From Chrysomallon squamiferum (Eukaryota; Animalia; Mollusca): 64,000 nucleotides of DNA. The DNA is taken from contig CM022668.1 in the NCBI GenBank assembly GCA_012295275.1, forward strand, positions 13,082,001-13,146,000, read 5' to 3'. This document shows, in pieces, positions 30,006 to 55,222 of this stretch. Within the stretch, counting starts at the first letter, position 1; the number at the start of each line of letters is the position of its first letter. Made by a program: the position numbers and the translations under genes. Below the pieces are notes generated by a model. It had not been told where the DNA came from, did not search any database, and saw only the letters and a list, made by a program, of their open reading frames with translations.

Positions 30006-31553
30006 TCACGACTGATGTGCCGAGCAGTGTTTGCCCGAAAATTCCTCATTACTGATGCTGCCGTCCTCTGAAAAATATCGACAAACAGAAAATTTGCATT
30101 AAGCAAATCTATATTCGTTCTCCCTAGCCAATCGTAACAATAAAGAGAAGAACACAATTGCGACTCCGCACAGAGGTAACGAAAGCCGTCAATATTTAAC
30201 TCATATTAATTCACCTTATCAAAATGCTCGCTGATATTAAGCAATAAAATACATTTAATATCGTTAATATGCAGAGCATCGGCGACATTTGGGTCAGAGT
30301 AATTTTTTTTTTTTTTTTTAATAAACTAACTGTTGGTATCCATCCAGACTGCTAAAACAGCTTTCAACAAAGACTGGTTTTCTGTAAGGAGTTGCGCCAC
30401 TTCTTCAATACTAAACGATTGCCTGAAAAAAAATAAAAAAACGAAATTAAAACCAGTCTAATGACGTCATTTTTTTTTTTTTTTTTATCTAGGTCGTAAT
30501 AAGCAGGCGAAATGAAAGAAAAAAAACGAAAATAAACTTGTCTAATGACGTCAGTTTTGGGTATTCATGTCGTAATAAGCAGATGAAATAATAATAATAA
30601 TAATTAAAACTAGTCTAGTATTGATGAAAAAAGTTAAAGAAGAAATTCGACGTCTCCACATAGGTTATTCTGATCAGTTGATCACTAGACAACATTTCTG
30701 TTCATAGACACTAAATGAAATAAAAGTGTATTGGCTAAAGAGCGCTTGTTAGAATGTGAAAAAACGTATAATCTAGGCCAGACAAGGAGTGATCATACGA
30801 CTGTCATCCTAAATGTAGACCAGCAACAACAACAGCAACAACAACAACATTAATGATAATGATGATGATAATAATAATAATAATAATAATAATAATAATA
30901 ATAATAATAATAATAATAATAATAATAATAACAATAATAATAATAATAATTCTGTGATGGCGAAAATACAGATTCTGGATCCCAGTAACTATTGATTTTA
31001 GGACTTTAGCTATGAAGAAGAAGAAAAAGAAGAATAAAAGAATAAAAAAAAGAAAAAAAAAAAAAAAAAAGAAGAAATAACGAAGAAAGGAAAAGAAAAA
31101 GAATGTGAAAAAAGTAAGAAAAAACAAAAAGGGAAGAAAAAAGAAAGACAAGAACTACAGGAAACACGAACTGGAAGAAGGAAAAAAATAAAATAAAAAT
31201 AAAAAATAAAATAAAATAAAATAAAATAAAATAAGAAAAAAATGTATAAGTTAATAAAACAAAAGATAAATTAAATTTTTTTAAAATAATCCACACTAAG
31301 AAGAAATTAAAAAATGAAGAAGAAAAACAGAAAACCGTAATAACAACAACGAAAGCTTAATTCTAAATCTACACCTGTTTGCTATTTTCATCACGGATTC
31401 TAGAACGGAGTTGTCTCTCTTTTTAAAGGGTTGTCTCCCCGCGGCGTTGCTCCAGAATGCGGCAGACGAATGCTCTTTTATGATTGGCTCTGTAGGTTTA
31501 TCTTTCAGAGCGCCCGACAACGCATGTAGTGTGAACAGATACGACAGCATCAT
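30006..31553 (-). CDS. Allatotropin-family-like secreted precursor, paralog A (coding exons 31553-31375, 30422-30331, 30067-30006; 110 aa)
   Basis: Acceptor ttttccag| at 31565, then ATG 31553. Spliced product: MMLSYLFTLHALSGA-LKDKPTEPIIKEHSSAAFWSNAAGRQPF-KKR-DNSVLESVMKIANR|QSFSIEEVAQLLTENQSLLKAVLAVWMDTNK|DGSISNEEFSGKHCSAHQS*. All junctions are GT-AG with strong polypyrimidine tracts. Phases 2 and 1 and exon lengths 92 and 62 nt equal those of gene B. EF-hand loop DTNKDGSISNEE; AATAAA at 29902-29897. Confidence 0.85.
30430..30620. promoter_or_regulatory. Duplicated ~84-bp intronic unit, each copy with a full CRE (TGACGTCA)
   Basis: GTCTAATGACGTCA...GTCGTAATAAGCAG occurs twice, with CREs at 30462 and 30546, next to the acceptor of the 92-nt exon of gene A. 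Confidence 0.5.
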
Positions 31554-33399
31554 CCACGACGTAGTCTGGAAAAAAACAAAAAAACTGGAGTGCATGAATA
31601 TATGAACGAATAATAAACGAAAGAAAGATAAATGTACGAATAAATGAATAAATAAATAAGTAAATATGTACGTAAATAAATAAGTAAAATAGATAAATAA
31701 ATAATTATGTAAATAGGTACATATATAAGTAAGTAAGTAAATAAATAAATAAGTAAATAAGTAATAAATAAATAAATAAATAAATAAATAAATAAATAAA
31801 TAAATAAATAAGCAAGTAAATAAATAAATAAATAAATAAAATAAAATAAAATATTTAATAAACGGATACATAAATTAATAGATAAGTATATAGGCGACAA
31901 AGATCCCAACAAAACAAAAAAGCAAATAAATAAATAAACAAACAAACAAATAAACAAACAAACAAATGAATGAACAAATGAATGAATAAATAAATAAATA
32001 AATTTATGGTTTCTTAACGAAAACCGTTACGTCAGTCTGAAAATGTCAAAGAACTGTTTAATCATGCGCGACATTGAGAACTGTTTAATCATGCGTGACG
32101 TTGAGATTCTTGTGATATTCACAAGCGTGACTGGGCTGCTTGATAACGAAATGTTTGAACACACACTAATTTTATTACTACACCGTTTATCGAAAGAAAA
32201 ACCCCCCCGCACTAGAACGTGTTTGAACAAACCATGTTGATGTCGTTGTGGTGTGTGTGTTTTGTGACAGGAAATAATTATGGTAAAATGAGATACGTCG
32301 TGACTGATGTTGTCATGCTATGTAGTAAGAAAAAAAATGTGACAGCGATGAAAGTGGGATGCCGTAGATAGAGAGATAGACAGATACATAGATTTAATGT
32401 TAGACAAACTGATAGATAGGTATATACATAAAGAAATAAGCAGACTGGAAAAGAGAGAGAGAGAGAGAGAGAGAGACTATTATATGCTATAGATAGGTAA
32501 ATAAATAGTGGGCGAGAGGTAGATATATATATATATATATATGAAGAAAAAAAAAAAGAAATAATCGATACAAATTCTACCTCCTTTACTTTATTTAAAC
32601 TGTAACTTTGTTGTACGTAATATCTTTTTTGAAATCCTGTTTCTTTTTTACACAAATCCTAACTTTATATATATATGTATATATATTTTATTAAATCGAA
32701 GCTAACAGAATGTCAGGCCATCAGAAATTTTTAACTGATGCTAATACAGTTAATAATTAGCCAATAAGAACACACATACAAATGAAGCGAATAAAAAGAA
32801 GATAAACTTTCATTTAGTTGGATTAAACGCTACAAACAGAAAGAAAAATAGAAACACATAAATTAATGATTATGGATTAAAAGAATTAATCGATTTTATG
32901 AACATCAACAACTAGTTAATGGAACATTAAACATTTGCTGCGTTATTTGCGATTAATCGATACCAGCGGTACGCATGCGATACAAACTTTGTACAAACGC
33001 TCTGAATATAAGTTTATAGTACTGGTTTAAACAGACGATGTATGTAGGGAGATGAAACCTTTATAAAAAAACAGACATTACTTGTTCATACAGCTAATAT
33101 TAGTATACACAGAGAATATTAGTGTAATTAACAATATTAATTCAAAAAACAACGATAATTTTAAAAAAGGCTTTATTAGTATCCTCATCCTGATTGTCCC
33201 TAATTCTTTTATGAAAAAACATACAAAAAACACCCCCAGAACACACAAAAACCCGACAAAAAACACACAAATAACCCACAAAAAATACAGTAAATACAAT
33301 TTACTAGTTTATACACACAATACTAATTAAAACAGACAATATTGTATAAAGAGCCAAAATTTGTTTGAACGGACTGCAATTGTTTGAATGGACGACATT

Positions 33400-53263: not shown

Positions 53264-53394
53264 TATTTTTATTTTTACTAATTTTACATAAAGGCCACAT
53301 CAATATTGGATTTCTGTGTTTGTCCGCGATTGTGTTTGAGTTCTCTTTTCGTCTGTATGTTCCGTGAAAACACGCCACTCATCGTGCATCATCG

Positions 53395-55222
53395 TCATTC
53401 AAGGCCGGATATTGCCGAGTGATCGTAATTCCGGAGTAGCTGAAAGAACCATACACATTAATTACAAACTGACGTGTTTTAATTGAACTAAAGATTATTT
53501 ATTATTCAAACAGTATCATAAGGCATGAAGGAAAGTGTATTTGTATAGTTAAATGGAGTAGTTATAAATATGTGCAATATATAAACACCTACATATATAT
53601 TTATGTACCGAGGCATTTGTGCATGCATACATACATACATACATACATACATTCAGTACATACACACACACACATATACAAACACACATACATTTTCCCC
53701 ACACATGCATACACCCATGCACACATACACACAGTAATATACACAGAAACACAGAGAGATAAACACATATATATATAATAAACTGTACTACTTATTAAGT
53801 ACAATTACAGGTACATTTTAATAACTGCAAGGTAGATGGACAGATTGTAATAATAATCGATAAAACTGATAGATAGAAGAACAAATGAAAGAAAAAGAAC
53901 TGAGAGAAAGAAAGAGCAGGAGAACAAATCAAAATGACGAAAAAGTTTAACTAATAATCACAAGAAACTCTGCTGGCCATTTTTATTTATTATTATCTCG
54001 TAACCGAGCATTTTTGCTTTTGAAATAATTTTTAATTACTCAAACATACGCAGCTGAAATTAAATTAAAGACTCAGTAAACAACCAATCGTCTCCCTGGC
54101 AACAGAAGAGAAACGAATAAATTTAACTTTTATAATTACCGCAGTGGTCACTAAATTACGTAATGAATTCGTGGGTGGTTTAGGATCGCGATATTTTAAA
54201 TAACAATTCCTGGAGGTCAGTTCTGTCTTGGAGAATTTTGTTTTGCAGTTCCTTTGCATTATCCTTGCCCAAGCGCAGTTTAAAGCCACAAACAAAGATT
54301 AAAATAGATCATTGCTTTTTTTTTCTTTTATATATTTCGAGAAACAGAAAGAGAGAAAGAAGAAGGAGAGACGACTAACGGCGAAAGAAAAGAAAGAGAG
54401 ATATTAAAGATAGAGAGAAGGTTTTCAAAGAAACAAACAGAGAGAGAGAAATCGAACAGAGACCGAAAAAAAGAAAAGTGAAAAAAATATGAATTAATGT
54501 AAATCAAAGATGGAGAGAGAGACAGAAAGAATTTTAAAAAAAAGAGAAAGAAAGGAAAAAGAAATAAACAAAAAACATACGAGAAGAAAAAATTAACCAA
54601 TAAAGAACGTGACAAAACAACATAAAATAAAAAAAATATATTTCAGTCACACACGCAAAAAACTGAATCACCTAAAACTAAACATCCTACAGAACTAAAC
54701 CTAACAACCACCACCACCACCACCACCAACAACACCAACACCAACAACACTACCAACAACAACACCACCACCAATACCAACACCAACACCAACACCAACA
54801 AAACCACTACCTCCAACACCAACACCACCACCACAACCAACACCAACACCAACACCAACAACACCAACACCAACACCAACACCACCAACATCACCACCAC
54901 CACCACCAACAACAACACCACAAACAACAACAACTACAACATCAGCATTTACCCTTGTCTCCGCCGCATCACTGGGATGGTTCGGACTGGACCTGACTGG
55001 ACTCCGCTTCCCGTAAAACCGGCCCATCCGGTCGAATCTGGACGGGTAGCCTCGCTTCGATCCGAACGCGAAGTAGTTTTCAAACAGCTCGCTCAGCAGC
55101 AGGTCAAAGTTCGCGGCCCGGGGACTGGGGCCCTCGACGAACGACGCCCTCTCGTAGTAACGACATGACGTAATGTCGACCAGCAGAACCAGCGCGGTGA
55201 TAGCGATACACAGTATAGTCAT
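53395..55222 (-). CDS. Amidated neuropeptide precursor, gene C (GYPSRFDRMGRFYamide; main exon 55222-54953; terminal exon 53439-53395 or alternatively 54263-54180)
   Basis: Acceptor ttacag|AACG ATG; signal peptide MTILCIAITALVLLVDITSC; KR-GYPSRFDRMGRFY-GKR; phase-0 donor AGG|gtaaat at 54953. The strong acceptor ttctttcag| at 53439 gives LLRNYDHSAISGLE* (104 aa total). The 3' exon structure is uncertain. Confidence 0.82.

Follow-up and report, generated by a model that had tools for sequence, protein, structure and literature searches.

A cluster of three divergent neuropeptide precursor genes, probably of allatotropin descent, predicted in Chrysomallon squamiferum

In this study, we analysed a 64,000-nucleotide stretch of the genome of the mollusc Chrysomallon squamiferum (assembly GCA_012295275.1, contig CM022668.1, positions 13,082,001 to 13,146,000; hereafter the window) and found three predicted neuropeptide genes inside 25 kb, arranged as A(-), B(+) and C(-). 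On balance, we think that they form a cluster of precursor genes likely derived from an allatotropin gene that was duplicated locally long ago, with peptides that would act on allatotropin/orexin-type G protein-coupled receptors (GPCRs) other than the canonical one. Judged from sequence, the C-terminal domain places A and B among the precursors of the allatotropin family, and gene C is likely derived from the same family, without being counted as a member. The published sources cited below were covered in part, through sections of their text or supplementary files, and statements based on them apply to those sections.

Every intron of the three models has GT-AG borders and every frame is open, giving spliced precursors of 110 (A), 116 (B) and 104 (C) amino acids. 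The coding exons lie at 31553-31375, 30422-30331 and 30067-30006 for A (-), at 43161-43357, 44952-45043 and 46473-46534 for B (+), and at 55222-54953 and 53439-53395 for C (-), with the ATG placed 12, 19 and 4 nt after the acceptor AG, respectively. A preliminary description of this DNA had proposed such a cluster within ~25 kb, with each ATG just past an acceptor and with coding exons of 92 and 62 nt and intron phases of 2 and 1 common to A and B; these points were verified from the sequence, in which the three peptide stretches that it named were also located. Gene C has two coding exons and an intron of phase 0, unlike A and B. The GC content of the exons is 41-58%, and that of the AT-rich window, which holds many microsatellites, is 21-36% per 2 kb. 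The exons are as follows.

31375..31565 (-): gene A, first coding exon; acceptor at 31565, ATG at 31553, weak signal peptide, AFWSNAAGRQPF at 31460-31425, KKR site, phase-2 donor
30331..30422 (-): gene A, second coding exon of 92 nt; encodes the cryptic-domain helix and the start of the EF-hand-like loop, and ends in a phase-1 donor; a near-identical DNA contig spans it with no indels
30006..30067 (-): gene A, final coding exon of 62 nt; remainder of the EF-hand-like loop and stop; loop completed by 1 of 157 AGs
43142..43357 (+): gene B, first coding exon; ATG at 43161, strong signal peptide, KR, QQRTAR, predicted peptide SILSRMAAGY at 43293-43322, GKR, phase-2 donor
44952..45043 (+): gene B, second coding exon of 92 nt; carries the helix of the cryptic domain and opens the EF-hand-like loop, with a phase-1 donor; matches published sequences by eye
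46473..46534 (+): gene B, 62-nt last coding exon; completes the EF-hand-like loop in the spliced model
54953..55226 (-): gene C, first coding exon; ATG at 55222, strong signal peptide, SKR, predicted peptide GYPSRFDRMGRFY at 55051-55013, GKR, phase-0 donor; look-alikes in the Atlas are generic neuropeptide precursors
53395..53439 (-): gene C, predicted final coding exon of 45 nt; the least certain of the exons, without the cryptic domain

Allatotropin/orexin-type precursors are defined by a conserved "cryptic" domain that lies outside the peptide (PMC5860471), and this domain, a helix with an EF-hand-like loop, is present in A and B and absent from C. A 13-residue PROSITE-type regular expression for the EF-hand loop has no match in the six unspliced frames and matches once in each spliced model, at residues 88-100 of A and 94-106 of B. 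Among the downstream AGs, a single one of 157 completes the loop in A, and it is the acceptor of the model; in B, 2 of 94 do so. Since the loop forms solely across the splice and so few AGs complete it, the second junction of both genes is well supported even without RNA, and the helix and EF-hand C-terminus earlier ascribed to A and B holds in both. The published Crassostrea, Danaus and Spodoptera records depart from the consensus inside this loop, an indirect observation that would fit an intron at the same place.

For comparison with other species, we used the allatotropin entries in parts 105-107 of supplement file 3 of PMC6425005, where the grouping is inferred from the order of entries. 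Counted by eye over 41 residues of the published sequences, the tail of B is identical to that of Haliotis at 20/41 positions and to that of Manduca allatotropin at 16/41, and the tail of A to that of Lottia cf. kogamogai allatotropin at 18/39 and of Lottia 234765 at 16/41. This supports the placement of both genes in the allatotropin family that had been proposed before. A and B themselves agree at 6 of 41 tail residues, against 39-49% for each with the tails of other species. Their whole-protein local score was equalled by 2 of 1000 shuffles. Because the tails are far closer to the allatotropins of other species than to each other, the A/B duplication is likely old or strongly diverged, not fresh. 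In B, the likeness extends to the processing site and the peptide: QQRTAR before the peptide parallels QQRPTR of Manduca, and six residues of the 10-mer agree with the end of the peptide of Octopus and five with the peptides of Lottia 234765.

The preliminary description had instead seen local duplication and diversification into a lineage-specific ligand family, which would be a recent expansion of the three genes under rapid diversification. The tight clustering fits this, as does the lack of any homologue in sequence searches and of any of the three peptides in the supplements searched; we nevertheless consider it very improbable, because A-B DNA identity is just 34/92 in the 92-nt exon and 27/62 in the 62-nt exon, each tail is closer to those of other species, and divergent extra copies have been published elsewhere. 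No homologue came from protein searches with exon 1 of B, exon 1 of C or exon 2 of B, and no locus from metagenome scans with the first exons of C and B. A representative-protein search with B exon 2 gave six matches of 371-1367 aa, and the three inspected are unrelated repeat proteins. No known allatotropin was returned either, which means that these searches were too insensitive and that their blanks do not show novelty or absence. Pfam returned a sole, sub-threshold match for five exon pieces, in the signal-peptide region of B, and Rfam gave 0 matches. Of the neuropeptide families considered as alternatives, GNXQN and LXRX were ruled out by their sequences, and PXRX, GSWN, GRWRN, LXRY and RTLFamide by their descriptions.

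All three precursors had been described as bearing signal peptides. Judged by hydropathy, this is the case for B and C, with N-terminal peaks of 3.5 and 3.1, and is weak for A, where the hydrophobic core is short and the peak reaches 1.7. The predicted peptide of B follows KR and QQRTAR and is laid out as SILSRMAAGY-GKR, and that of C as SKR-GYPSRFDRMGRFY-GKR; the corresponding stretch of A ends in QPF-KKR without a glycine, so no amidated product is predicted. A canonical allatotropin peptide, with a G-F start and an H/R-G-F/Y-amide end in one peptide, is found nowhere in the window, in agreement with the preliminary description: B ends in AGY-GKR without a G-F start, C starts with GY and ends in RFY-GKR, and A has no GKR. 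The suggestion that A keeps the N-terminal half of the canonical peptide did not hold up well, as AFWSNAAGR agrees with the start of the Aplysia peptide at 4 of 9 positions and has neither an upstream basic site nor an amidation signal.

Several observations weigh against a cluster of allatotropin descent, and they concern the comparison itself, gene A and gene C. The tail identities are counts by eye, and an EF-hand-like tail also occurs in another precursor family, nemertean allatostatin-B (PMC8557429). Gene A combines its weak hydropathy peak with the lack of an amidation site and of any usable Atlas match for exon 1. When contigs of four of the five listed sequencing runs were compared with A exons 2-3, one run covered these exons, unspliced and at ~99% identity. 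This near-identical second contig argues against an assembly artefact of A; it has no exonic indels, all three exonic differences are non-synonymous, two of them in the variable end, and the exons diverge no less than their flanks. The second contig gives no sign of purifying selection on A exons 2-3.

Such features, namely lost amidation, a weak signal and three non-synonymous differences out of three, could mean that A is a decaying duplicate and that B is the fast-evolved allatotropin orthologue of the species, with no canonical copy elsewhere. B does have the full canonical layout of signal, RxxR site, amidated peptide and tail, with a tail identity of up to 49%. We regard this explanation as unlikely. 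The open frame and intact splice sites of A, and its 18/39 identity to a canonical tail as opposed to 6/41 to B, suggest long selection. In addition, 6 of the 23 molluscan species in the above parts of PMC6425005 (Lottia, Deroceras, Leptochiton, Scutopus, Antalis and Gadila) have two or three distinct precursors in the allatotropin entries, and all six retain a canonical-type peptide, which speaks against a species without one. The same entries qualify the earlier statement that allatotropin is usually a single gene, which is true of 17 of the 23 species and not of the other six.

The case against gene C is of a different kind. It has no tail and an intron phase different from that of A and B, and no credible cryptic domain was found among 900 downstream AGs, where the six motif hits all lie in simple repeats. 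Its local score against A was equalled by 356 of 1000 shuffles, which is chance level, and its score against B by 30 of 1000, which is weak; its Atlas neighbours are neuropeptide precursors of many families, with recognition below threshold. It may be, then, that only A and B are allatotropin paralogues and that C, an undescribed gene for an amidated peptide, is unrelated to them and neighbours them by chance, an alternative that we consider doubtful. The motif RM-x3-[FY]-GKR, picked after seeing the data, has exactly two occurrences in the window, one in B and the other in C (0 of 150 local shuffles), and C lies less than 10 kb from B. C and the precursor of the bivalve Pinctada have SKR-G-aromatic, DRMG and aromatic-GKR in common, and the C peptide echoes an oyster peptide confirmed by mass spectrometry, GFRQSIVDRMGHGFamide (PMC4200219). 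Tail-less paralogues in scaphopods provide a precedent for a tail-less C. Thus the inclusion of C in an allatotropin cluster, as first described, is plausible by its GY start, DRMG and shared motif, while the missing tail and phase-0 intron count against it.

Under the allatotropin-derived cluster that we favor, the fate of the three products can be proposed from established prohormone biology, that is, secretion, cleavage at basic sites and amidation at G-KR. The products of A, B and C would enter the secretory pathway and undergo convertase cleavage. Cleavage of B at the RxxR site would yield SILSRMAAGYamide, or a 16-mer if the cut falls at the upstream KR; C would yield the 13-mer GYPSRFDRMGRFYamide, and A would give a non-amidated N-terminal peptide of ~28 residues and the tail. 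In evolutionary terms, the Gly-aromatic start would have disappeared from B, which retains the tail, and the amidated end from A, which retains it too; in C, this start would have persisted and the tail likely been lost. In protostomes, allatotropin is the counterpart of orexin.

In Aplysia, a peptide deprived of the N-terminal Gly-Phe is less potent at ATRPR2, with an EC50 of 10,000 nM, and several receptors similar to the ATRP receptors gave no response to ATRP (PMC10089201). Since Gly-Phe is needed at ATRPR2, B is predicted to be a poor agonist there and a candidate ligand for a paralogous receptor; C, given its Gly-aromatic start, may be a more conventional ligand. The cluster does not amount to a new kind of signalling system, and what it supplies are candidate ligands, B and C, for Aplysia-type receptors unresponsive to ATRP. 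The pair of C and A also represents a natural separation of peptide from tail that opens the function of the cryptic domain to testing; in the literature covered, no tested function for this conserved domain was found. A broader proposal, quite doubtful at present, would be that molluscs possess an overlooked ancient allatotropin cluster, that paralogues ending in R-M-x3-F/Y-amide (B, C and the Lottia V/IFamide) are the ligands of orphan ATRP-receptor-like GPCRs, and that A shows the cryptic EF-hand domain to have a function of its own.

Divergent allatotropin paralogues are a kind of gene that is already known, and each of two gastropods is reported to have two allatotropin-like genes, located on homologous pseudochromosomes (PMC10401626). 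Molluscan allatotropin/ATRP precursors (Aplysia NP_001191666, Haliotis GD272763, Pinctada, Octopus) resemble the genes described here in having a signal peptide and one amidated peptide before GKR, and they have the cryptic helix and EF-hand-like domain of A and B, the RM-x-x-G-aromatic end of B, and the G-aromatic start and DRMG of C. The genes in the window differ from them in that none has both a G-F start and an H-G-F/Y end, C is tail-less, A is unamidated and all three lie within 25 kb. In Lottia gigantea, Lotgi1|234765 ("V/IFamide") has the cryptic domain (16/41 to A by eye, as above) and 10-residue amides of the SRLNRMPAIFamide type, S-x-L-x-R-M-x-A-x-aromatic, in the register of B and of the last 10 residues of C. 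It carries six such peptides in tandem in one precursor, whereas B and C have one R-M-x3 copy each and A has none, so that the multiple tandem R-M-x3-F amide copies of the V/IFamide type are seen in none of the three.

Parallels to the losses in A, B and C come from other molluscs. Leptochiton 30690 and 33482 and Scutopus 29728, from a chiton and a caudofoveate, are extra copies with eroded peptides and a retained tail, like A and B, and Leptochiton 30690 has a Trp before the loop, as in A; the extra copies of the scaphopods Antalis and Gadila keep the peptide and lack the tail, like C. The peptides of all these copies are unlike those of A, B and C, and the copies are known from transcript sets, with no genomic arrangement given in the sections covered. 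Neither the three-gene cluster nor the three peptides were found among the matches listed in the literature and supplements searched; the unseen parts of files 2 and 3 of PMC6425005 may hold relatives, and Veenstra 2010, Jekely 2013 and the Deroceras and Sepia surveys fall outside this coverage. The sequences and their clustered arrangement thus appear undescribed. To that extent the earlier claim of an undescribed ligand family stands, but divergent extra copies, B-like 10-mers and tail-less copies have all been published.

The second exon of C and all 5′ non-coding exons, which the preliminary description had placed upstream of each gene, are predictions only. For the latter, the plus strand offers candidate donors at positions 25884 and 40019, and the minus strand at 35100, 41688 and 59629. 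A GC-rich exon-like segment at 25700-25884 (+) ends in a strong donor and has no coding exon nearby; if it is the first exon of B, gene A lies inside the first intron of B on the opposite strand. At 59753-59871 (-), an acidic coding-looking stretch of ~40 codons lies just upstream of the strong donor 59629, a candidate first exon end for C. A splice from the first exon of C into the second of A was ruled out by phase (0 versus 2), and no fourth neuropeptide exon was seen among the islands listed in a GC-island scan. A GC-rich island at 56626-56736 (+) gives a weak tblastn echo of the C-terminal part of C (E 9.6), which contains a stop and is probably due to chance. A dispersed inverted repeat pair of 298 nt, 91% identical, lies at 52970-53263 and 62926-63219, and one copy overlaps the predicted 3′ end of C. 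Upstream of gene A, 33435-34082 is a 19-bp minisatellite of ~34 copies.

Elsewhere in the window, 2300-3549 (-) holds a two-exon BTB/POZ-domain gene (Pfam BTB, E 1.1e-14). A tandem array of ~4.8-kb units, 87-96% identical, occupies 3716-23112 (+). Four of the units have an intact stop-free frame of 241 codons (6672-7394, 11473-12195, 16527-17249 and 21260-21982), and these differ by 0-6 residues. The only Pfam match of this frame is to CTSRT (E 0.33); judged by eye, it may be C2-domain-like.

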